Shown piece by piece: positions 3,973-54,991 of a stretch of DNA of 64,000 nt. Positions within the stretch are counted from its first letter, which is position 1; every line of letters starts with the position of its first letter. Position numbers and translations under genes: made by a program. Origin of the DNA: Patescibacteria group bacterium (GTDB taxonomy: Bacteria; Patescibacteriota; Patescibacteriia; SG8-24; DYFX01); NCBI GenBank assembly GCA_030583805.1, contig CP129476.1, positions 966,657 through 1,030,656 of the forward strand, in the 5' to 3' direction. Below the pieces are notes generated by a model. That model was not told where the DNA came from. It saw nothing but the letters and a program-made list of their open reading frames with translations, and did not search any database.

Positions 3973-6795
3973 ATGGCTGGCAAAAAAATCTCCAAAGCTG
4001 GCGGAAAACACGGAGCACCGGATGTGATTCGCGTGCGTGGCGCGCGGGCGCACAACCTGAAGAACGTCTCCGTCGATATTCCGAAAAACGCGCTCGTTGT
4101 CGTGACTGGTCTTTCCGGTTCCGGCAAGTCGAGTCTTGCCTTTGACACGATCTATGCCGAAGGCCAGCGCCGCTACATGGAGAGCCTGTCGTCCTACGCC
4201 CGCCAGTTCCTGGAACTCCAGGACAAGCCGGACGTCGACGAGATTTCCGGCCTGAGTCCGACCATCGCGATCGACCAGAAAACGGTTTCTTCGAATCCGC
4301 GCTCGACAGTCGGCACCATCACTGAAATTTACGACTTTTTCCGTTTGCTGTTCGCGCGCGTCGGCAAGGCGCATTGCCCGAACTGCGGAAAGCCCGTCGC
4401 GGAACAAACGCCCCGCCAGATCGTCGATCGCATCAACGCGCTCGCCAAGGATCAGGGGCTTTTGATGCTCGCGCCGATCGTGAAGGAAGAAAAAGGCGAA
4501 CAGAAAAAAGCGATCGAAGCGATGTTCCGCGCGGGCTACCGCGAGGCGCGCGTCGACGGATCGCTGTACGCCATCGAGGAGCTCACCAAGCAGCGTCTCG
4601 ACCGCGACAAGCGCCACACGATCGAAGCAGTCATCGCCCGCATCCAGGAAAAAAATCCGGCTTACGACGAAAAGCAGATGCTCGCGCTCGTCGGCAAGGC
4701 GCTTGAAATGGGCGACGGTTTCCTGACGCTCCATTTGCAGAAAAAAGACGAAGACCTGCTGATGTCGCGCCGTTTGGCTTGCGCCGACTGCGGCATCTCG
4801 CTGCCGGAAATCGAGCCGCGCATTTTCTCGTTCAACAGCCCGCACGGCGCTTGCCCCGGCTGCACCGGCCTCGGCGTGAAGCTGACGGCGGAGCCTGGAC
4901 TTGTCATTCCGAACGATAAGCTGACGCTCGCGCAGGGCGCCATCAAGCCCTGGACGCGCATCGCCGGCAGCGGCACCGGCATGATGAAAGAGCTCCAAAT
5001 GCTCGCCGACCGCATGAAATTCTCGCTCGACGTGCCGGTGTCCGAGCTGCCGAAGAAGGCGCTCGAAGCCGTGCTCTACGGCGACGCGGAATTCCAAGGC
5101 GTCATTCCGCATCTCGAGAAAAAGCATCTCGAGACGGATTCGGAGTACATGCGCAAGGAGATCGAAGAATACATGCGCACGGTGACCTGCCCGGTCTGCA
5201 AAGGCCAGCGCCTCCGCAAGGAAGCGCTGGGCGTGAAAGTTACCGGCAAGAACATTTCGGAGTTCGTCAGCATGTCGATCGAGGAACTCGGCGACACGTT
5301 CAAAAAAATCGACCTGCCGCCTTTCGATCGGAAAATCGCCGACCAAATCGTGAAGGAGGTTTCCTCGCGTCTCTTCCATCTTCTGGAAGTCGGCTTGGGC
5401 TACCTGACGCTCGACCGCTCGGTTACGACGCTCTCGGGCGGCGAAGGCCAGCGCGTCCGTCTCGCCACCCAGCTCGGCACCTCGCTTTCCGGCGTCATTT
5501 ACATCCTGGACGAGCCTTCGATCGGCCTCCACCCGCGCGACAACGACAAGTTGATCGAAGCTATCAAGTCGATCCGCGACGTCGGCAACTCGGTAATCGT
5601 CGTCGAGCACGACGAGGCGATGATCGAAGCGGCCGACTACGTCTTCGACATGGGTCCTGGCGCCGGCGAATTCGGCGGCGAAGTGACCGCCGAAGGCACG
5701 CCTTCCGACATCAAGAAAAACAAGAACTCGCTGACGGGACAGTATCTCTCCGGCAAGCAGCAAATCGTGGCGCCCAAAGAGTCGCGCAAGGGCAGCGGCA
5801 AGTCGATCCAAATCATCGGCGCGACCGCGTTCAATTTGAAGAACGTCGACGTGAAGATTCCGCTCGGCAAGCTCGTTTCCGTCACCGGCGTTTCCGGTTC
5901 CGGCAAGTCGACGCTCGTGATCGATATTCTCGCGACCGCTCTCGCGAAGAAGTTTTATCGCGCGAAAGAAGAGCCCGGCGCGCACAAGGCGATCAAGGGC
6001 ATCGAGCACATCGACAAGATCATCACGATCGACCAGTCGCCGATCGGCCGCACGCCGCGCTCGAACCCGGCGACCTACACCGGCGTCTTCACGGCCATCC
6101 GCGATCTCTTCACCGAAGTGCCGGAAGCCAAGATGAAGGGTTATGACGCAGGCAAGTTCTCCTTCAACGTGAAGGGCGGCGGCCGCTGCGAGACCTGCGC
6201 CGGCGAAGGCTACCAGCGCATCGAGATGCAGTTCCTGCCCGACGTTTTCGTCGAGTGCCCGGAGTGCAAGGGCGCGCGCTACAACCACGAAGCGCTCGAG
6301 ATCCACATCAAGGACAAAACGATCGCCGACGTGCTCAACATGACGGTCGAGGAAGCGCGCCGCTTCTTCTCCGACGTTCCGGCCGTCTTCGACAAGCTCG
6401 ACGTGCTCCATGACGTGGGCCTCGGCTACCTGAAGCTCGGACAGCCCGCCACGAACCTCTCGGGCGGCGAAGCGCAGCGCGTGAAGCTCGCGACGGAATT
6501 GTCGCGGCGCGCGACCGGCAAAACGCTGTACATCCTCGACGAGCCGACGACCGGCCTCCACTTCGAAGACATCAAGCGCCTCCTCGGCGTCTTGGACCAG
6601 CTCGTCGAAAAGGGGAACACCGTCGTCACGATCGAACACAACCTCGACGTCATCAAGTGCTCCGACTGGGTGATCGACATGGGTCCCGAAGGCGGCGACA
6701 AGGGCGGCAAGCTCGTCGCCGAAGGCGCGCCGAAAGCCATCGTCAAAGCCAAAGCCTCGCTCACGGGGCGGTACTTGAAATCGGTCGTGAAATAA
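3973..6795 (+). CDS. uvrA: excinuclease ABC subunit A
   Basis: 940 aa with two ABC ATPase modules: Walker [15 protein letters not shown] and [11 protein letters not shown], signatures LSGGEGQR / LSGGEAQR. Zn-finger CPNCGK and CETCAGEGY...CPECKG. Confidence 0.95.
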
Positions 6796-13422: not shown

Positions 13423-13539
13423 AGTTCCTTTCACGTCCCCCTCTCGGGGAACCGCCCATGGCGGGCGACACGCGACCATACGTAAAAACGAAGCGTCTGT
13501 CAAGCCCCGATTCCGACGCTGTCGACGCACGCGCGCAAC

Positions 13540-13568
13540 TTGACAAAACCGTAAAAAAATGCTATCTT
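13540..13568 (+). promoter_or_regulatory. sigma70-like promoter (TTGACA-17-TGcTATCTT) for the acidic protein gene
   Basis: TTGACA at 13540-13545, a 17-nt spacer, and an extended -10 TGCTATCTT at 13560-13568. The ATG at 13606 is ~37 nt downstream. Confidence 0.4.
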
Positions 13569-13605
13569 TAAAGGGTATTTAAGATGGTTTTTCATCCCAT
13601 TTCCT

Positions 13606-14133
13606 ATGGCTGAAGTCATGCCGAACCCCGAATCGCAACAGCGTCCGGATGTCACCGACCAGGACATTGAGCGCTTGATGAAGGCGTTCGAGGAGACAGA
13701 TCAGGAAGAAGATGGAAAGGGCGCCGCCCAGAACGAGGAAATCGCCGAATTGGCGGCCTCGCTCGACGCGCTCGGCGAACAGCTGCAGGCGGAAAAAGTC
13801 CTGGAGCAGGACAAGGTCGAAGCCTTTAAAGAGGCCTTGGCCACGTTCCTCGACGCTGCCGTCACCGAAGAGGTGGACTACGTTCTCGGCGGCCGCGAAA
13901 CGGTCAACGGCGCGGATATGATTTCCGTCGTCATCGAGCGCTCGCTTGAAAAAGGCGGCGTCCAGCAGTCGGCCTTCGAGGCCTTCTCTGCTGATCCCGT
14001 CCTGCGCCTCGGTACCAAGAAGCGCCTCATGGCGGAGATCGAGATCAAAATGATGGATCGCGAAATCGGCAACGATCAGGAAAAAATTTCCAAGCTCGAG
14101 AAAGCGCTCGACGCGCTCGAGAACGCTTCCTAA
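13606..14133 (+). CDS. acidic hypothetical protein (coiled-coil-like, pI very low)
   Basis: 175 aa rich in E/D/A/L. Monocistronic: the promoter above is upstream and a terminator lies at 14144-14166. Confidence 0.5.
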   Translation: MAEVMPNPESQQRPDVTDQDIERLMKAFEETDQEEDGKGAAQNEEIAELAASLDALGEQLQAEKVLEQDKVEAFKEALATFLDAAVTEEVDYVLGGRETVNGADMISVVIERSLEKGGVQQSAFEAFSADPVLRLGTKKRLMAEIEIKMMDREIGNDQEKISKLEKALDALENAS

Positions 14134-14143
14134 GCGAAACCAA

Positions 14144-14166
14144 AACCGCCCATCCGGGCGGTTTTG
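14144..14166 (+). terminator. rho-independent terminator
   Basis: CCGCCC-ATCC-GGGCGG followed by TTTTG. Confidence 0.55.
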
Positions 14167-14192
14167 CGTTCTTCCGACGCACGCGGTTAAAT
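14164..14192 (+). promoter_or_regulatory. putative promoter for tRNA-Ile (TTGCGT-17-TTAAAT)
   Basis: -35-like TTGCGT at 14164-14169, a 17-nt spacer, and -10-like TTAAAT at 14187-14192. The tRNA 5' end is 10 nt downstream. Confidence 0.3.
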
Positions 14193-14202
14193 GAGTGCGC
14201 GC

Positions 14203-14278
14203 GGGCCCGTAGCTCAATGGTTAGAGCACCGAGCTTATATCTCGGCGGTTGATGGTTCGAATCCATCCGGGCCTACCA
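14203..14278 (+). tRNA. tRNA-Ile, anticodon UAU (AUA-decoding)
   Basis: Manual cloverleaf: acceptor GGGCCCG / CGGGCCU (G1-U72), D-arm GCUC-AAUGGUUA-GAGC, anticodon stem CCGAG/CUCGG with loop C-U-UAU-A-U, T-arm GAUGG-UUCGAAU-CCAUC, discriminator A, CCA encoded. The acceptor/3' end GGCCUACCA resembles bacterial tRNA-Ile. Confidence 0.8.
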
Positions 14279-14287
14279 AAGTCCACC

Positions 14288-15100
14288 ATGGCTCTCCTAT
14301 CACAGGAAATATTGCAGACCGTTGTATCTATTGAGATACAGCGCGGTGATGAGACCACGACCATCGCCACTGGTTTTTTGTTCGTTAAAAAAATTGATGA
14401 TAATCAGATCTCCAAAAGAGGGCGAGTCTATTTGGTTACAGCGAAGCATGTGCTATTTAAAAACAATCAAATTAAATACAGAGAGATTCTTGTTCGGATG
14501 GATAAGAATGGATCAGGTGGCCAACTTTTCAGGGCGCCTCTACAGGATGAAAATGGAGCACTCTTTGCAATTCATCCAACAGCAGATGTTGCCGTGCTTT
14601 TATTAAGCGTGAAAGCGCTTCAAGATGGGGATCTCAAGTACAGGTGGTTCATTAATGATCGGGATACGGTATACAAAAAAACTTACGAAGAATTTGGAGT
14701 TTCTGTTGGTGATAGCGTCTTTGTTCTAGGTTTTCCAAGAGGTTTGCGAGGGGTGAGTGCTAATTACGCCATTTGTCGTCAAGGCATTATTGCAAGACTT
14801 GATCAAGAGTGTCTGAACGATGGTTATTTCTGGATAGATGCCCCTGTATTTCGAGGTAATAGCGGAGGTCCAGTAATTTTGCGTCCAGAAGGGTTTTCCA
14901 TAGAAGGTACCAAGGCAGTAGGTTCATCTTGCTTGCTTGGCCTAGTATCCATGTGGGTGAACGCGGATGATGAATCTGGTGAGACCGAAAATGATTTAAA
15001 AGGGCAGATGGGGTTAGGCAAAGTAGTCACTACCCAAGCCATTGAGCGTGCTATTGAAGAGCATGAAAAAATGTTAATCGCTCGAAAATCAAGCCAGTGA
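14288..15100 (+). CDS. trypsin-like (S1/Trypsin_2) serine protease, no signal peptide; low-GC (~43%) gene
   Basis: Catalytic triad context: TAKHVL (His), D in the middle block, GNSGGPV (Ser). GC is far below the ~64% of the flanks. Begins 10 nt after the tRNA-Ile 3' end. Confidence 0.75.
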   Translation: MALLSQEILQTVVSIEIQRGDETTTIATGFLFVKKIDDNQISKRGRVYLVTAKHVLFKNNQIKYREILVRMDKNGSGGQLFRAPLQDENGALFAIHPTADVAVLLLSVKALQDGDLKYRWFINDRDTVYKKTYEEFGVSVGDSVFVLGFPRGLRGVSANYAICRQGIIARLDQECLNDGYFWIDAPVFRGNSGGPVILRPEGFSIEGTKAVGSSCLLGLVSMWVNADDESGETENDLKGQMGLGKVVTTQAIERAIEEHEKMLIARKSSQ

Positions 15101-15160
15101 GCCCTCGGTTTGCAGATAGATAATTAGGTCGTGCTACCATCAACGCTTTGTTTCGCTGAG

Positions 15161-15225
15161 CCGAGCTTAGCTCGATAGCTAGAGTGCTGATCTGTAGCTC
15201 GACAGTTGATCGTTCGTATCCACCA
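15161..15225 (+). pseudogene. decayed tRNA-like remnant (pseudo-tRNA) related to the upstream tRNA-Ile
   Basis: Compare TTAGCTCGATAGCTAGAG...TTGATCGTTCGTATCCACC with the tRNA-Ile D-arm TAGCTCAATGGTTAGAG and T-arm TTGATGGTTCGAATCCATCC. The layout is preserved, but the anticodon, T and acceptor stems no longer pair. Confidence 0.35.
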
Positions 15226-15355
15226 AGATCTGCTGTCGTAAAATCCTGTTTACAGAGCGGATTTTCAGTCTGCAGACCCAGGCTTGACATTGTGATATTG
15301 CCCCTGTAAGTTTGCGCCGGCTCAAACAAACAATCCGAGCCAGAAAGAGTTACGC

Positions 15356-16927
15356 GTGAAAAAACGAACGCCCTGTCTGCTGATACTGACCGTGCTGTCG
15401 GCCTGCCAGTCGAGTCCCGACGAGGGATCCGAGCTGCCCGACGGCTACGTCCGCGCGACGCTTCCGGCGACCGAGAGCGGCATCGAGTATGCCCACCTCG
15501 ACACGCCGGAGATGCTGCCGGTCGGTCCCTCGGGGATCTTCTCGGTGAAGGACGGCTATGCTGTCGCGGACAACGTCCGCGGCTCCATCGTCATCCTGAA
15601 CGACGACTTCAAGGTCACGCGCGAGGTCAACGTCAAGAACGCCGCGCAGGGCATCCTGTCCGTCGCGTCCGACGGCGAGGATCTCGTGGCGCTCGACGGC
15701 TACGCGCTGACGCCCAAGCTCCTGCGGATCGGTCCGAACGGCGACATCAAGAGCAAGGACATCACGCTGAACTCCACCGCCGGACCGACAGGTCTGGTGA
15801 AGGACGACGTGGGCATGATCCTCGAGTACGGCGGCGGGGAGACCCTCTACCGGATCGATGATCTGGGCGCTTCGCTCGGGCTGGAGCCGATCGACCACTA
15901 CGTCTGGAACGGGATCGCGTACTCGGTGGACAAGCCGACCGAGACCTACTTCCACGAACGTACCGTGCGCATCGGAAGCCACGCCGGCGTCGTGCGCGTC
16001 CCCAATCACCTGGGCTCGGTGCAGCTCATCGGTTCGGATGGTGACGGCGGCGTCTACGCCCTCGTGGAGGACGTGACCCTCGCCCACACCATCTCGGTCG
16101 AGCAGTCTGTCTGGCACTTCTCATCGACCGGCGAAGCGCTGTCCGTGTCCAAGGTCCCGCTGCGAGAACGTCTCACGTACGTGACGCAAGGGGTCGCCCT
16201 GGACGAGGCTGGCGAACCGGTCGCGCTGGTTCCGCAGCGCGGCGATCTCCAGTTCTGGAGCCTGACGACGGTGAACGCTTCGGCGATCACCGCCCGGAAG
16301 CCGAGCAAGCTCCCTGGGGAGGTCGTGAACGATCTCGGCACCACGGCTCAGGGGCTGGTCACGTACAATGGAAGCTGCCTGACGTCGGCTCAGATCGCGA
16401 GCAACGCCAACGAGTACAAGAACGTCTCGCAACCCATGACGTCGAACAACGTCAACAACAACGGCAGCTGCACGTCGCGTACGAAGCCGAGCTACCTGAC
16501 CGTCGGGGTGAACAGCCCCGTGAGCTACGACTGGGGAGGCTGGGACACCCCCAGCGCATTCCAGTCCGCCATGAACGCGGGCGGCAAGGCCGGCAACGTC
16601 AACACCGCGGCCACGTTGACGTGTTCCTATGGCGCGGATTGCTCTGGCTTCGTCACGCGCGTCTGGGGCTGGTCCGACTTCAAACGATCGACGACCACCC
16701 TCGACGACGCCGTCAACTCGACGCCCGTCTACGGTCCAGGTTTCCTCACTGGCGAGATCTACAACCTCGCCGGTTCGCACACGGCCATCTACAATTCAAC
16801 GACCCCGAGTGGGCCGAACATCTGGGAAGCAGCCGGTGAGCCGTACGGCAGGGTCGTGTACAGAACCGCGTCATGGTCGTATGTCTCCGGGTATTCCACG
16901 TATCACGGCGTCACGCACTGCTGGTAG
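15356..16927 (+). CDS. secreted lipoprotein with C-terminal NlpC/P60-like (papain-fold Cys-His) putative peptidase domain
   Basis: Lipobox LTVLSAC. The C-terminal block ADCSGFVTRVWGW...GSHTAIY fits the NlpC/P60/CHAP-type catalytic Cys...His. The S/T/N-rich linker and N-terminal domain are unassigned. Confidence 0.5.
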   Translation: MKKRTPCLLILTVLSACQSSPDEGSELPDGYVRATLPATESGIEYAHLDTPEMLPVGPSGIFSVKDGYAVADNVRGSIVILNDDFKVTREVNVKNAAQGILSVASDGEDLVALDGYALTPKLLRIGPNGDIKSKDITLNSTAGPTGLVKDDVGMILEYGGGETLYRIDDLGASLGLEPIDHYVWNGIAYSVDKPTETYFHERTVRIGSHAGVVRVPNHLGSVQLIGSDGDGGVYALVEDVTLAHTISVEQSVWHFSSTGEALSVSKVPLRERLTYVTQGVALDEAGEPVALVPQRGDLQFWSLTTVNASAITARKPSKLPGEVVNDLGTTAQGLVTYNGSCLTSAQIASNANEYKNVSQPMTSNNVNNNGSCTSRTKPSYLTVGVNSPVSYDWGGWDTPSAFQSAMNAGGKAGNVNTAATLTCSYGADCSGFVTRVWGWSDFKRSTTTLDDAVNSTPVYGPGFLTGEIYNLAGSHTAIYNSTTPSGPNIWEAAGEPYGRVVYRTASWSYVSGYSTYHGVTHCW

Positions 16928-16933
16928 GAACGA

Positions 16934-16976
16934 GCTCTGGGGCTGGATGCACGCCGTGCATTCAGCCCGTTTTTAA
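16934..16976 (+). terminator. rho-independent terminator
   Basis: GGGGCTGGATGCAC-GCC-GTGCATTCAGCCC is an imperfect 13-bp stem followed by GTTTTT. Confidence 0.5.
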
Positions 16977-16978
16977 TC

Positions 16979-16984
16979 TATACT
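16979..16984 (+). promoter_or_regulatory. TATACT -10-like box 18 nt upstream of the ATG at 17003
   Basis: Member of the recurrent TATACT set; see findings. Confidence 0.3.
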
Positions 16985-17002
16985 AACCACAGTAACTTCC
17001 TC

Positions 17003-17557
17003 ATGAATATGAAAAAACCCCTTGCTTTCATCGGTTGTGTCATCATTGTTATCGCCGCCTATTTCTTTGGCTATTTTTCGGTTAGACAGTCACCTCTTGT
17101 TGAGCCAGCCCAAACGGAGAATACGCCATCCAGAGCCGCCACCGGCTCCGCCAAGCTTTACGGAAAGTTCGTGAAGATCAGCGAGAGCGGCGTGGAGCTG
17201 CGCTTGGTCGAGTGGGTGGAAGGTTCTGATAATCAGGAACAAGCCGCCCTTGAAACCGGGCGCTGCACCCTTGATCGCATCGAGAAGGACGAGTGCCTGC
17301 CGAATCCGTTCTTCATGCGCGAGACGCAAAAAACCATGACGTTGCCGATTAACCAGAAATTGACCGTCCAAGTTCTCTCGCCTGGCTCTAACGGAGAGAT
17401 CAAACAAGATGAACAGCAGAACACGATCCATCGCGAAATCAGCCTGACTGAGCTTGGAAAAATGCTTGCGAACGTCGAATTCACCAAGCAGACCCCATTC
17501 ATCTTCACGACCACCAGCGGAGTCATCGCTGAGATTCGCGAGCAGTACATCCCCTAA
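17003..17557 (+). CDS. membrane-anchored hypothetical protein, lower GC (~52%)
   Basis: N-terminal TM LAFIGCVIIVIAAYFFGYF followed by a soluble domain. GC is noticeably below the flanks. Confidence 0.5.
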   Translation: MNMKKPLAFIGCVIIVIAAYFFGYFSVRQSPLVEPAQTENTPSRAATGSAKLYGKFVKISESGVELRLVEWVEGSDNQEQAALETGRCTLDRIEKDECLPNPFFMRETQKTMTLPINQKLTVQVLSPGSNGEIKQDEQQNTIHREISLTELGKMLANVEFTKQTPFIFTTTSGVIAEIREQYIP

Positions 17558-17670
17558 AATTGAAAGGCCGGTTGTTGATCTACCACGAAAACCCTTGACC
17601 AAAGAGGGTTTTTGTGTTTTACTGGGGCGTCCGTAACCGCAGTTCTTCCCGCCAATCCCAGAGGAGACCG

Positions 17671-18006
17671 ATGCACCCTGCACATCCGCCACGTACCGGC
17701 TTCGTTCAACCACCCCTCGTCCTCACGGAGGAACCCACGCGCCGCATCCAGCTCGTGCGCAAGTACGCCGAGTACGTCGGCCGCTGTGGCCATCCGGCGC
17801 CTCCCCAAGGCGCGGAAGTCGACTACATCTTCCGCTGCATCCTGCTCGAGCGGCTCTTCGCCCACAACGCGGTCGATCTCGACGTCTTCGAGCACGAGCA
17901 CCGCGCCTTCGCGTGGTTCAACGAGGCGGCGTTCAAGAACGCCGTCGGCGTCGTGAGCTCGTACGTCAACGGCCAAGCCGTGAAGGGCGGCACCGGCCTC
18001 AGGTAA
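17671..18006 (+). CDS. hypothetical protein
   Basis: Start uncertain (track ORF 17614; MHPAHPP at 17671). No motifs recognised. Confidence 0.35.
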   Translation: MHPAHPPRTGFVQPPLVLTEEPTRRIQLVRKYAEYVGRCGHPAPPQGAEVDYIFRCILLERLFAHNAVDLDVFEHEHRAFAWFNEAAFKNAVGVVSSYVNGQAVKGGTGLR

Positions 18007-18088
18007 GGGCCGACACCCTCAGCGCGCGTCTGAACGAAGAAGCCTTCGTCGGACGCGCTTTTATTTTTCCCGTACCGCGAGCGCTATC

Positions 18089-19027
18089 TTGACGCGGCGG
18101 CGATTTTTTGATATGAAGCGGCCGTCGCACGCGCGACGGAAAGGGCTGGCCATGGCCAAGCCGACATCCGAACAGTTGGAACGTTTCCACGCGCTGATCG
18201 AAGCGGGCATGATCACGAGCAGCTCGCTCGAGATCCAGCTCAGGCACCATGAGCGCCGTTTGCTGAGACTACGCGCCGCCACACCGACGCTCGTCACGCC
18301 GCACGAGGCGACGGAGGAGCAACTCGCGCTTCGGCGCGCGCTCGATGCCACCGGCGCGAGCTACCCCGAACTGCTCGTTCCACCTCAGAAGGGGGATAAG
18401 CACGGAGCGCGCCTGCGCAATATTCTCTTGAACTTCTCGGTTCAGGCGGGTGAAACGCGCCTTTACCCTTCGACCATTCGCATGCTCGTGCATCTCAACG
18501 AGCGGCAGGTGGTGATGGGTCACGACATGGGCCCCGGCAGGTTGGAAATCCTGAAGGCGCGGCTCGCGCAGGCGGCACTCCGTTTCGGCATGTCCGAAGC
18601 GGAAATCAGCGAGGCCTTTGGTCCGAAGCTTGAGCTGCCGCTCGCCCAGAAGCAGTTCGCTGCCAGGCGCACGCTCGACCGCGTCGGCGCGGACTATCCA
18701 GGCATCCTGATCCGTCCAGAGACGCCCGTTGCCACGAGCGCGCTGTGTCTCCTCCAGACCATGTGCCGGAGCGGTCGGGTGCAGATACAAGGCGTGCCGG
18801 GGAACACCTTGCGATCAGCGACCACGATCCGGGAGCTCGTACGGCTTTCGCCGGGCGATTTTCCGAAGATCGACGGGTCGAGCGCCGAGATCGCGGAGTG
18901 CGTTCAAGAAGCCTTGGCAGCCGTCGGCCTGCGGCTGGGTATGAACCTTTCCGAAGTCGAAAGATCTTTCCGTCCGGAACCCTTGCCTGAAATCAAACTC
19001 GATACCATTGCCGCTGCGGCTTCCTAG
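18089..19027 (+). CDS. hypothetical protein with an internal two-fold repeat
   Basis: Two ~100-aa halves are visibly similar (RRALDATGASYPELLVPP... vs RRTLDRVGADYPGILIRPE...; LRNILLNFSVQAGETR vs LCLLQTMCRSGRVQ). Alternative starts are at 18113 and 18152. Confidence 0.45.
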   Translation: MTRRRFFDMKRPSHARRKGLAMAKPTSEQLERFHALIEAGMITSSSLEIQLRHHERRLLRLRAATPTLVTPHEATEEQLALRRALDATGASYPELLVPPQKGDKHGARLRNILLNFSVQAGETRLYPSTIRMLVHLNERQVVMGHDMGPGRLEILKARLAQAALRFGMSEAEISEAFGPKLELPLAQKQFAARRTLDRVGADYPGILIRPETPVATSALCLLQTMCRSGRVQIQGVPGNTLRSATTIRELVRLSPGDFPKIDGSSAEIAECVQEALAAVGLRLGMNLSEVERSFRPEPLPEIKLDTIAAAAS

Positions 19028-19087
19028 CCCGGCGTTTTTTGATGCAAAAGAAAACACCCAGCCCTGTGAGTAGGGATGGGTGCCTTC

Positions 19088-19164
19088 TGGTGCGCGCTGA
19101 AGGAGTCGAACCTTCGACCTTCTCGACGTCAACGAGACGCTCTAGCCAACTGAGCTAAGCGCGC
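19088..19164 (-). tRNA. tRNA-Val, anticodon GAC
   Basis: Minus-strand cloverleaf: acceptor GCGCGCU/AGCGCGC, D-arm GCUC-AGUUGGCUA-GAGC, anticodon stem UCUCG/CGAGA with loop U-U-GAC-G-U, T-arm GAAGG-UUCGACU-CCUUC, discriminator A, CCA encoded. 77 nt. Confidence 0.85.
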
Positions 19165-19262: not shown

Positions 19263-20336
19263 ATGCGCGGCTTCAAGCGATTCCTTCTCGTCATGCTCGT
19301 GCTCGGCGTCCTCGCGGGCGCGGGGTTCGGCGTGCTGTGGGTCAAGCACCGCGTCGAGGCGTACTCGTTGGAGAACATCGTGGTCGAGCCGGCGCCGCCG
19401 CAGCCGAAACCGCCGGAAGAGAAAATCGCGCTCGACGAACGTCTGGAAGGGTTGCTGTCGCGCGAAGACGAAGCGCGGCTGCTCTACGCTCCTGAGCCGG
19501 GAACAAAAATTTTGTCCGCCGCGTTCATCGACAACGGCACGCTCATGCTCACGACCAGCGCGGCGCAAGGGAAGGAGACGCGCTGGAATCTTGAACGTTT
19601 TGATATCGCCTCCGCGACGTCGGTACAGCTTCTGGGCAGCACGGCCTTCCGCCTCGCCTCGAGCCACCGGCCGGCGCATCGCAACGTCAATCGTTTCTGC
19701 TATTCCGAGCGCGATGCGAAACGCGGCGTCTTTGAAATCTGGTGCGCCGATCTCGACGGGCGAAATGCGAAGCAGATCACGACGCACGACGGCAAAGAAG
19801 ACTTGCTGTCGCCGGCGATTTCTCCGGACGGCGCCTGGATCGCGTTCGAGGTGCTGGCCGAACGTCCGAAACCGCAAGGTTCGACGATTTGGAAAGTCCG
19901 CCTGGACGGTTCCGACCTGCAGCAGCTTACGCGCGGCGCCGACGACCGCCGCCCGAGCTGGTCCGACGACGGGCGCAAGATCTATTTCCAGCGCCGGCCC
20001 ATCGCCGGCGGCACGAGCTGGGACATGTACGGCATGGATGCGGACGGAAAAAATTCCGGCCCGCTTCTGCGCACGCATGAAGAAGATGAATCGTTTCTGG
20101 CGAGGCGCGCCGCGACGGACACCTTTGTCGTCGTCGAATCGGCAAGCGGCGTTCCGGCTCGTCTCAAGTTAATCGACGCCGTGACCAAAGCGGGGGAGTA
20201 TCTGACGGCCGGCACGAACGGTTCGGAAACGTCGCCGTCGGTTTCTCCTGACGGACGCGTCGTGGCGTTCATCGCGCCTATCTCCGCGGACCAGCCCGAT
20301 GCGCTGGCCGTTTGGCTCGCGCAAATCAAGTATTGA
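19263..20336 (+). CDS. TolB-like periplasmic beta-propeller protein (PD40/WD40-like repeats), membrane anchored
   Basis: N-terminal TM LLVMLVLGVLAGAGFGVLWV. Repeated SPDG-type blades (LSPAISPDGAWIAF, PSWSDDGRKIYF, SPSVSPDGRVVAF) are typical of the TolB C-terminal propeller. Confidence 0.65.
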   Translation: MRGFKRFLLVMLVLGVLAGAGFGVLWVKHRVEAYSLENIVVEPAPPQPKPPEEKIALDERLEGLLSREDEARLLYAPEPGTKILSAAFIDNGTLMLTTSAAQGKETRWNLERFDIASATSVQLLGSTAFRLASSHRPAHRNVNRFCYSERDAKRGVFEIWCADLDGRNAKQITTHDGKEDLLSPAISPDGAWIAFEVLAERPKPQGSTIWKVRLDGSDLQQLTRGADDRRPSWSDDGRKIYFQRRPIAGGTSWDMYGMDADGKNSGPLLRTHEEDESFLARRAATDTFVVVESASGVPARLKLIDAVTKAGEYLTAGTNGSETSPSVSPDGRVVAFIAPISADQPDALAVWLAQIKY

Positions 20337-54058: not shown

Positions 54059-54991
54059 ATGAGAATGTTTGAGAGGTTTTTCGGAAAAAAATCCTCCATC
54101 GATCGTGTTGTCGGAGGGTCGTCGAAAGAGAGGAAAAGCGCTGATAAAGAAATGGAGAGGCGTTTCAAAGACCAAGAAATACCAAGCTTGAGCGACATCG
54201 AACTTCCAAAAACTCCGGAAGTACTCGAAATGATCGAGATTGCCAACCGTGCGACGGATCTGCTTCGTGAAAAATACGGTCTGCCGGAGTATCGCGTGCC
54301 GTCCGAAAACTACCACCTCATCAAGGAGAAAAACGATAATCGCATGCCGCAACATGGCGCGTTCAGCGTGCAACGCCAGGCAATTGCCATAAAAGAGGAT
54401 CATCTCAAATCACGGCTGTTATCCTCGCTTTTTCACGAGACGGTGCATTTCAAGTCCTATGCCTCGCTTCATGGCGATGCCCCCGACCTCATTCCTCGTC
54501 GCAGCGGCCTGAACATGACTATCGGGAAAGAAAGGGAGCGGGCCTTTGGAGCATTGAACGAAGCGGTGACGGAAGAGCTGGCAAAACGCTTCATGCGCGC
54601 CCAGGAAGACCTCCCTATGTTGGCGGATGAAATGGATCTATTACAGCGCGGGCGGGAAAAATACGGTGCAGAGGAAATGGAAGACATTGTCGCCGTGGAA
54701 GTCAAAGATCATCCGACAGACCGTGATCTCATTAAGGTCGCCGTTTACCATTTCGCGTATCGCCGCGAACGCGAAGCTCTCCGTCTCCTTATCGATAAAC
54801 TTCAAGAGCGCAATCCTCAAGTATTTCGTGATAAGGAAGAATGGTTCGATCTGTTCGCCTCCGCCATGTTCAACGGCCACTTGCTTGAATTGGCGCGGAA
54901 CATCGAAAAGACGTTTGGCGAAGGTTCTTTCCGTAAGCTCGGTGAGCAGAAAAATGGCGAGGAGTTGCTGAAATACGTCGAATCCCTCTGA
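54059..54991 (+). CDS. hypothetical protein with HExxH zincin-like motif; low-GC (~48%) gene
   Basis: LFHETVHFKS (HExxH) with a downstream E-rich helix (ALNEAVTEEL) suggests a possible gluzincin-type metallopeptidase fold. No signal peptide. GC is clearly below the flanks. Separated from both neighbours by only 2 nt. Confidence 0.5.
   Translation: MRMFERFFGKKSSIDRVVGGSSKERKSADKEMERRFKDQEIPSLSDIELPKTPEVLEMIEIANRATDLLREKYGLPEYRVPSENYHLIKEKNDNRMPQHGAFSVQRQAIAIKEDHLKSRLLSSLFHETVHFKSYASLHGDAPDLIPRRSGLNMTIGKERERAFGALNEAVTEELAKRFMRAQEDLPMLADEMDLLQRGREKYGAEEMEDIVAVEVKDHPTDRDLIKVAVYHFAYRREREALRLLIDKLQERNPQVFRDKEEWFDLFASAMFNGHLLELARNIEKTFGEGSFRKLGEQKNGEELLKYVESL

Follow-up and report, generated by a model that had tools for sequence, protein, structure and literature searches.

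What brought a low-GC gene for a trypsin-like protease to a position between a tRNA gene and a decayed copy of that same tRNA, and what the protease does there, are the questions raised by a 64,000-nucleotide (nt) stretch of a Patescibacteria group genome (GenBank assembly GCA_030583805.1, contig CP129476.1, positions 966,657 to 1,030,656 of the forward strand). The whole of this stretch is referred to below as the window, and positions are counted from its first letter. The source genome is a metagenome-assembled genome (MAG) of the Patescibacteria, Paceibacteria-like. Our analysis indicates that the protease gene probably arrived by horizontal transfer and forms an islet of one gene, about 1 kb in size, directly 3' of a core tRNA-Ile(UAU) gene. 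It encodes a protein of the PDC-S45/phrog_7688 type, for which a role in defence or conflict is the leading candidate.

The tRNA-Ile carries a TAT (UAU) anticodon and was called by ARAGORN and matched by Rfam (RF00005, 73.5 bits). The protease open reading frame (ORF; 14288-15100, + strand) is intact, with 813 nt encoding 270 amino acids (aa), and its ATG begins at the tenth base past the CCA end of tRNA-Ile. The start codon is taken to be real because homologs align from residue 1, with the consensus MAL[IL]P..YLN..VSIE, in which M1, L3, and L9 are conserved. On reading the sequence, neither a terminator nor an obvious Shine-Dalgarno sequence was found in the spacer separating the two genes, and a promoter and + strand terminator scan of the spacer detected none. 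NCBI annotates the identical protein as a serine protease from a Patescibacteria-group MAG.

The composition of the gene is strongly atypical. The ORF has a GC content of 42.9% and a GC content at third codon positions (GC3) of 36.5%, compared to a GC3 of 65-87% in five neighbouring genes; the mean GC of the window is 60.8%, with a local background of 60-66%, and the protease gene falls 18 GC points below its flanks. The low-GC segment begins at the 3' end of tRNA-Ile and ends somewhere between 15223 and 15356, where the next gene starts.

Relatives of the locus were found by scanning species-representative genomes with the gene encoding an RluB-like pseudouridine synthase, which lies about 1.1 kb upstream of tRNA-Ile. 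Eleven were obtained (L012-L022), comprising Paceibacter, Minisyncoccota, and Patescibacteria MAGs with a GC content of 0.56-0.65 and RluB proteins 70-88% identical, and their 20-kb loci were inspected directly. In each of these, tRNA-Ile(TAT) adjoins RluB (e.g., at 8583-8658 of L012), and in most, orthologs of the 175-aa and 216-aa ORFs of the window lie between the two. On the far side of tRNA-Ile, eight of the 11 have a tRNA-Val(GAC) gene, followed by an ortholog of the window gene at 19263-20336. The content of the interval between the two tRNA genes differs from one genome to the next, and its length is 0.8-4.2 kb in the eight relatives versus 4.8 kb in the window. The genes encoding the protease and the 523-aa, 184-aa, and 312-aa proteins of the window interval were not found in any of the 11 loci (tblastn, E<1e-5), nor was a remnant of tRNA-Ile or a second tRNA-Ile gene. 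Among 5.8 billion proteins, the homolog closest to the protease was 44% identical, while the flanking core proteins have orthologs at 70-88% identity. Because the best homolog is only 44% identical, no sampled relative carries an ortholog of the protease anywhere in its genome, a genome-wide absence that is drawn from the protein-database search. The atypical composition, the absence of the gene from the locus of 11 relatives, and the lack of any homolog above 44% identity together indicate that the protease was acquired.

The site of acquisition has received other genes as well. In this lineage, the stretch between tRNA-Ile and tRNA-Val is a hot spot for insertions, since its size varies from 0.8 to 4.8 kb. 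An unrelated 245-aa gene (DLLDPMFLATRETFPGEK), which has no Pfam family, lies in the interval of five relatives, and in three relatives it starts about 10 nt past tRNA-Ile, as does the protease gene in the window. The interval of L022 contains low-GC genes encoding a Panacea/SocA-type antitoxin and an IS1595 transposase. Directly past tRNA-Ile, seven of the 11 relatives have what reads as a hairpin plus T-run terminator, which has no counterpart in the window. Both the protease gene and the tRNA remnant downstream of it were acquired specifically in this lineage, at a hot spot bounded by tRNA genes.

An initial annotation of this DNA had proposed a foreign origin for the gene, in agreement with the atypical GC, the absence from 11 relatives, and the 44% identity of the best homolog found here. 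A comparison of synteny around tRNA-Ile, which that annotation had called for, showed that the cassette is missing from the syntenic locus of all 11 relatives. The protease did not prove to be a conserved core gene of the same GC in related genomes, which the annotation had named as a finding that would speak against its proposal. Its placement of the gene start 10 nt past the tRNA-Ile CCA was reproduced, as was its value of about 43% GC for the gene; the background of about 64% it had given was slightly high.

The sole Pfam match of the protein is to Trypsin_2 (PF13365), across residues 28-198, with 40.4 bits against a gathering cut-off of 27.6 (E = 6.2e-10). The catalytic triad H54/D100/S192, with the serine in a GNSGGP motif, occurs in the order His-Asp-Ser. 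All three residues are invariant in an alignment of 14 sequences; in an alignment of 72, this remains true of H54 and S192, and D100 is kept in at least 90% of sequences. The AlphaFold2 (AF2) model built from the 72-sequence alignment (predicted local distance difference test score 89.2; predicted template modeling score 0.89) is a chymotrypsin-type double beta-barrel in which residues 12-19 form a high-confidence core beta strand and residues 249-269 a long C-terminal helix. The top Foldseek matches were DegP, DegS, thrombin, elastase, and SplA (prob 1.00, E ~1e-8, template modeling score ~0.5), which are generic for the PA clan. A sequence-profile search of the PDB gave 2as9 as the best match (1e-5), with HtrA at ~1e-4. 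No PDZ domain, signal peptide, or membrane anchor was found in the protease by Pfam or in the AF2 model, and a signal peptide is excluded because the N-terminal residues belong to the folded core. The protein is thereby predicted to be a stand-alone cytoplasmic serine protease of the PA clan (S1) and to be catalytically competent. This is in keeping with the cytoplasmic His/Asp/Ser protease without signal peptide of the initial annotation, given the conserved triad and an N-terminus inside the folded barrel.

The protein was further matched by two families from defence and phage collections. The PADLOC family PDC-S45 (hidden Markov model PDLC05022) aligned with residues 4-222 over model positions 16-236 of 293 (E = 1.3e-22, 78 bits), and the phage family phrog_7688 with residues 5-256 over positions 4-272 of 288 (E = 7.8e-24). 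All 72 aligned homologs from the candidate phyla radiation (CPR) also match PDC-S45, the best at 2.5e-33. Weaker matches were obtained to the protease parts of RT-Protease_XI (7.7e-6, and to 1.8e-11 in homologs), Avs2, and LmuA. Searching 1.84 billion representatives with a profile returned 10,413 relatives at E<1e-3, of which 523 clusters remained at the stricter E<1e-30. Almost all of these 523 consist of stand-alone proteins, 260-310 aa long, whose alignment starts at residue 1; the named top homologs are mostly from Patescibacteria, Parcubacteria, and Nomurabacteria. Judged by these sequence matches, the protease belongs to a related but remote subfamily of PDC-S45 rather than to its core membership.

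The genomic context of homologs was surveyed at nine independent loci, with the neighbours scanned with PADLOC. No conserved neighbourhood was found. Five of the nine lie beside restriction-modification (RM) or other defence genes, namely a TaqI-like Type II RM system (L002), a Type IIG RM-methyltransferase (L064), PDC-S41 (3e-289) 12 nt upstream (L067), a Ppl-like/mad3 ATPase with a Schlafen-AlbA protein and MazEF and PIN modules (L066), and an HKD-Snf2 (DrmD-like) helicase with FtsK and PD-(D/E)xK genes (L062). Because the protease gene is AT-richer than its flanks at all nine loci, by 1.4-14 GC points, the survey suggests that the family has been transferred recurrently. Several homolog loci lie downstream of tRNA genes, with tRNA-Asn 195 nt upstream in L006 and tRNA-Asn and tRNA-Ser opening the islets in L002 and L005. 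Distant homologs (25-30% identity) are present in two plasmid records. One is in a Bacillus paranthracis phage-plasmid (L071, 3980-4822; CP113368.1), where it occupies a moron-like position between tail and integrase/holin/lysin genes. The second is carried by a 12.5-kb MOBQ plasmid of Acinetobacter (L070, 3929-4696; NZ_CP084304.1), beside a recombinase. Taken together, these contexts portray the protease gene as accessory and mobile, widespread among CPR bacteria, and frequently situated in neighbourhoods linked to conflict.

Two arrangements seen in the survey are recorded here in their own right. The PDC-S41 gene of L067 (SLFN-g3 helicase; 4015-5988, + strand) is full length, and with the protease homolog just downstream it forms an apparent operonic arrangement of two PADLOC candidates. 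In two unrelated loci, L005 (4763-5800, - strand) and L067 (7057-7944, + strand), a gene for a ClpP/S49-type peptidase (SDH_protease/Peptidase_S49) adjoins the protease gene. Neither peptidase had a PADLOC match, and the trypsin-like and ClpP/S49-type enzymes could be a two-protease pairing.

A role in defence or conflict is a plausible candidate function for the protease, which we advance tentatively. Modules termed trypsin-MBL, with Trypsin_2 domains, have been described in Hachiman, Avs2, and Ago defence, and the protease in such systems acts as an activator or effector of abortive infection (bioRxiv 10.1101/2025.09.03.673762). In the window, an HtrA-like protease with its GNSGGP motif might be held inactive until a phage-derived cue arrives and, once triggered, would cleave host or phage proteins in the manner of abortive infection. 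It would act either as a one-gene sensor-effector or with an unlinked partner. The initial annotation had raised defence as a hypothesis. At the level of the family this finds support, from the PDC-S45 match at 1.3e-22 and from the five of nine homolog loci beside defence genes; at the level of the window it does not, as no neighbour was matched by PADLOC.

Several observations weigh against a defence role. The PADLOC scan of the 175-aa gene upstream and the four interval genes downstream gave no match, and four of the nine homolog loci (L001, L005, L006, and L009) have housekeeping or uninformative neighbours. The PDC families are 145 PADLOC candidates, nominated because their genes lie within BREX, DISARM, or Type I RM loci and described as untested (Payne et al., bioRxiv 10.1101/2024.01.29.577857). 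A PDC-S45 member in a Sinorhizobium prophage reaches E ~1e-94 (PMC12429752), and the match of the window protease is remote by comparison. A scan of IMG/VR that used the family alignment yielded 34 matches to its patterns, with no homolog confirmed among them, and a tblastn search of INPHARED revealed no homolog of the protease.

The main rival to a defence role leaves the acquisition, and the tRNA remnant as its insertion scar, in place. It holds that the gene is an acquired accessory protease of another kind, a mobile-element "moron" serving in processing or regulation, anti-defence, or competition between elements. The match to a phage protein family, phrog_7688, would fit such a moron, as would the distant homologs in a phage-plasmid and on a small plasmid, the four contexts of nine without defence neighbours, and the lack of any such neighbour flanking the protease in the window. 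However, homologs repeatedly adjoin RM, PDC-S41, Ppl-like, and HKD-Snf2 genes, and PDC-S45 owes its own definition to genes located within BREX, DISARM, and Type I RM systems. We regard a non-defence function as somewhat unlikely, though it is the best of the alternatives.

The manner in which the gene arrived may be reflected in the sequence downstream of it. When tRNA-Ile was aligned locally with 15101-15355, the best match was to 15168-15222, beginning 67 nt past the protease stop codon and covering tRNA positions 8-63, from the D arm to the T arm, with a score of 26. The alignment has 56 columns including one gap, with 41 of 56 reported as identical and 42 of 55 aligned bases on a re-count (~73-76% identity). 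Against 966 window tiles and 2000 dinucleotide shuffles, the background had a mean of ~8.0-8.1, a standard deviation of 1.2, and a maximum of 15; none of the 2000 shuffles reached 26. With a score of 26 against a background maximum of 15, the similarity is not due to chance. Functional tRNAs of differing types can also reach 23-29 against tRNA-Ile, and the segment was therefore compared with many types of tRNA, in a set of 42 tRNAs of 12 anticodon types taken from every locus fetched. Among the 42, the best match was the window's own tRNA-Ile(TAT), at 26. The tRNA-Ile(TAT) genes of the relatives mostly scored 16-24, with four at 9-12, and all types other than Ile(TAT) scored 14 or below.

The segment has decayed as a tRNA. 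It was not called by ARAGORN, and an Rfam search of 13500-16000 at E<=10 matched the real tRNA-Ile and not the remnant. As read from the sequence, the acceptor stem is absent and the anticodon and T stems are broken, while the D stem is still paired. The substitutions, with 6 GC-to-AT versus 5 AT-to-GC, are uninformative as to a donor or host origin. The tRNA-Ile-like segment that the initial annotation had noted downstream of the stop codon is thus confirmed by alignment far above chance. Its description of stems that no longer pair holds for the anticodon and T stems and fails for the D stem.

The remnant occurs in this genome alone, alongside the cassette, and its simplest reading is as a relic of the insertion event. 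It may stem from an integration that targeted the tRNA, or from recombination between homologous tRNA sequences that duplicated most of tRNA-Ile. The recombinase would since have been lost, or would have acted in trans, and the vehicle would be gone. Four results count against this route. The ORFs scanned between 8 and 25 kb contain no Pfam domain of an integrase or recombinase. There is no exact direct repeat flanking the cassette beyond short matches at chance level. The remnant has no tRNA 3' acceptor/CCA end, the part that attachment (att) sites normally duplicate. Finally, no pattern of tRNA, cargo, and remnant rose above background in the Ile-Val intervals of the relatives or in the protease loci near tRNA genes (Asn, Ser, Arg, and Ile). 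The absence of an integrase or recombinase had already been stated in the initial annotation, which had also proposed the scar of a tRNA-targeted element. Of that proposal, the cargo between a tRNA and a tRNA-derived repeat stands, and the integrase-type scar is not demonstrated by a copy of ~73-76% identity that lacks the 3' end.

Alternatively, the tRNA-like segment might be a pseudogene of independent origin, such as one left by a tandem duplication of tRNA-Ile long ago, and illegitimate recombination in an unstable hot spot might have placed the protease between the two copies. The ~24-27% divergence of the remnant, its extent from D arm to T arm without the 3' end, the lack of exact att repeats and of an integrase, and the rapid turnover of the interval in relatives without remnants left behind would all accord with this. 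But a second tRNA-Ile or a remnant is missing from all 11 relatives, and the one remnant occurs only where the cassette is, at its distal edge and inside the low-GC stretch. An independent pseudogene is, on this evidence, rather improbable, and we retain the insertion relic as the simplest account.

The position of the gene also bears on its expression. Because neither a promoter of its own nor a terminator after tRNA-Ile was detected, transcription from the tRNA promoter probably reads through into the protease gene, and 3' processing of the tRNA would then release a nearly leaderless protease mRNA. By its predicted fold, a hairpin that overlaps the former T arm may have been reshaped from the remnant, and it might now stabilise or terminate the protease transcript at its 3' end. 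The weak A/T hairpin that follows it resembles a terminator and was not called by the terminator scan. Its likeness to the post-tRNA terminator of relative L021 was considered and rejected, since the score of 7 was reached by 438 of 1000 shuffles.

In its most far-reaching form, the proposal would be that the protease family is a self-contained, single-gene anti-phage system and a major defence module of CPR/Patescibacteria. Here it would be present as a minimal, integrase-less, tRNA-targeting cassette, expressed as a tRNA-mRNA co-transcript, with the degenerate tRNA reused as a processing or stability element. We consider this a long shot.

The last two alternatives concern the acquisition itself. 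One is that the low-GC kilobase arose as an artefact of assembly or binning, by a chimeric join within the contig, which is very unlikely. The source is indeed a MAG, and an exact-sequence look-up of the protease in an assembly index returned no record, giving no independent contig with the gene; but the segment is only about 1 kb long in a contig of 1.17 Mb, both of its flanks are syntenic with the relatives, its left junction falls exactly at the tRNA end with the ORF start intact, and a host-type tRNA-Ile remnant lies within it. The other, a housekeeping (quality-control) protease passed down vertically in this lineage and odd in composition, as might be supposed from a family that is common in Patescibacteria and has some homologs among FtsH/SmpB or DnaG/sigma-70 genes, is effectively refuted by a GC3 of 36% versus 65-87% in neighbours, by absence from the syntenic locus in 11 of 11 relatives, by the lack of an ortholog above 44% identity anywhere in 5.8 billion proteins, and by homologs without a conserved neighbourhood.

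Table 1 Features of the protease islet and of the tRNA-Ile/tRNA-Val interval in the window
Feature	Coordinates	Strand	Evidence or remark
tRNA-Ile (TAT/UAU)	14203..14278	+	ARAGORN, Rfam; conserved core gene, left anchor of the insertion
Low-GC segment with the cassette, GC 0.42-0.51	14279..15355	.	Composition profiles
Spacer of 9 nt, tRNA CCA to protease ATG	14279..14287	+	Sequence
Predicted stand-alone cytoplasmic chymotrypsin-fold serine protease, PDC-S45-like/phrog_7688-like	14288..15100	+	Pfam, PADLOC, PHROG, AF2, alignment
Degenerate tRNA-Ile(UAU) copy, tRNA positions 8-63, non-functional	15168..15222	+	Local alignment
Hairpin with arms of ~12 nt (CGACAGTTGATC / GATCTGCTGTCG), overlapping the former T arm	15200..15238	+	Minimum free energy fold of 15140-15245, z = -2.0
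Weak A/T hairpin (AAAATCC ... GGATTTT), terminator-like	15240..15265	+	Sequence
523-aa lipoprotein-like gene	15356-16927	+	First gene of the rest of the Ile-Val interval (15356..19087)
184-aa protein with N-terminal membrane anchor, GC 0.52, GC3 0.65	17003-17557	+	
130-aa ORF	17614-18006	+	
312-aa ORF	18089-19027	+	
tRNA-Val (GAC)	19088..19164	-	ARAGORN; conserved far boundary of the variable interval

The remaining genes of the interval (15356-19087) have no Pfam, NCBIfam, or PADLOC family. The gene encoding the 184-aa protein is the second compositionally atypical gene of the interval; it likewise lacks a PHROG family and is absent from the relatives. Homologs of the 130-aa ORF, at 31-43% identity, lie inside the Ile-Val intervals of L013 and L022, and by this homology the ORF is judged a real, recurrent gene of the hot spot. 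A 140-aa ORF antisense to this region (17554-17976) had only a weak tblastn match, in L013. An inverted fragment at 18005-18034 resembling the 3' end of tRNA-Val(GAC) (23/30) was also considered; its score of 15 is within the window background, which reaches 18, and the likeness is probably due to chance.

Two observations lie outside the interval. A tRNA-Ile with the UAU anticodon is also present in the Nomurabacteria locus L009 (3945-4019). Because tRNA-Ile(UAU) adjoins RluB in all 11 relatives and occurs in Nomurabacteria as well, these CPR lineages seem to decode AUA with a tRNA that has a UAU anticodon; searching the literature for tRNA-Ile(UAU), TilS, and Patescibacteria yielded no paper. 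Elsewhere in the window, a low-GC patch (~0.47-0.54) at 54059-54991 (+ strand) contains a 310-aa ORF with an HExxH-like motif (HETVH), which may be another acquired gene, perhaps for a metalloprotease.

The immune repertoire of CPR/Patescibacteria, which have tiny genomes and are mostly unculturable, is poorly charted. In this locus, a one-gene, trypsin-type protease related to a PADLOC candidate family moves horizontally in the CPR and lands in a tRNA-bounded hot spot. If its function is defensive, it would be a compact, protease-only immune module that is easily tested and an entry point to CPR-phage conflict; if not, the locus is a well-documented tRNA-adjacent genomic islet.

Set beside known systems, the window protease is closest to PDC-S45, with which it shares a stand-alone, Trypsin_2-type architecture of about 270-300 aa, a single-gene organization, and homologs that adjoin RM or other defence genes. 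It differs from that family in the remoteness of its match (78 bits) and in lying neither in nor beside a recognised defence system. With phrog_7688 it shares a single domain and a nearly full-length match, but the window copy is on the chromosome of a CPR bacterium with no prophage genes nearby, and the tblastn search of INPHARED and the IMG/VR pattern scan found no close phage homolog of it. The protease domains of RT-Protease_XI, in which a reverse transcriptase (RT) is fused to the protease, and of Avs2, LmuA, and trypsin-MBL are homologous to the window protein. Unlike RT-Protease_XI, Avs2, and the Lamassu protease, however, the window protein has a single domain and no fused or adjacent RT, STAND NTPase, ABC ATPase, or LmuB/SMC. 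In contrast to trypsin-MBL, no MBL-fold gene adjoins it in the window, where the flanking genes at 13606-14133 and 15356-16927 have no Pfam family (E<=0.01 or 0.1).

The best matches among solved structures are HtrA/DegS/DegP (S1C) and the staphylococcal Spl proteases (S1B), with which the protein has in common the double-barrel fold, the GNSGGP-type motif, and the H-D-S order. The window protease nevertheless lacks the PDZ domain, export signal, and anchor of HtrA/DegP/DegQ/DegS, scoring 15.2 bits with TIGR02037 against a cut-off of 416, and is set apart from HtrA and Spl by its own conserved N-terminus, MAL[IL]P, and its C-terminal helix. The islet as a whole resembles classical att-flanked tRNA islands in having atypical cargo 3' of an intact tRNA, partial tRNA sequence at the far end, absence from relatives, and a position in a hot spot. 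It departs from them in having no integrase, a cargo of one 0.8-kb gene, and an inexact repeat of tRNA positions 8-63 without the acceptor/CCA end. Nothing here is categorically new: the candidate family is known, its member at this locus is a remote one, the location is of a typical kind, and the phylum is one that has been little studied.

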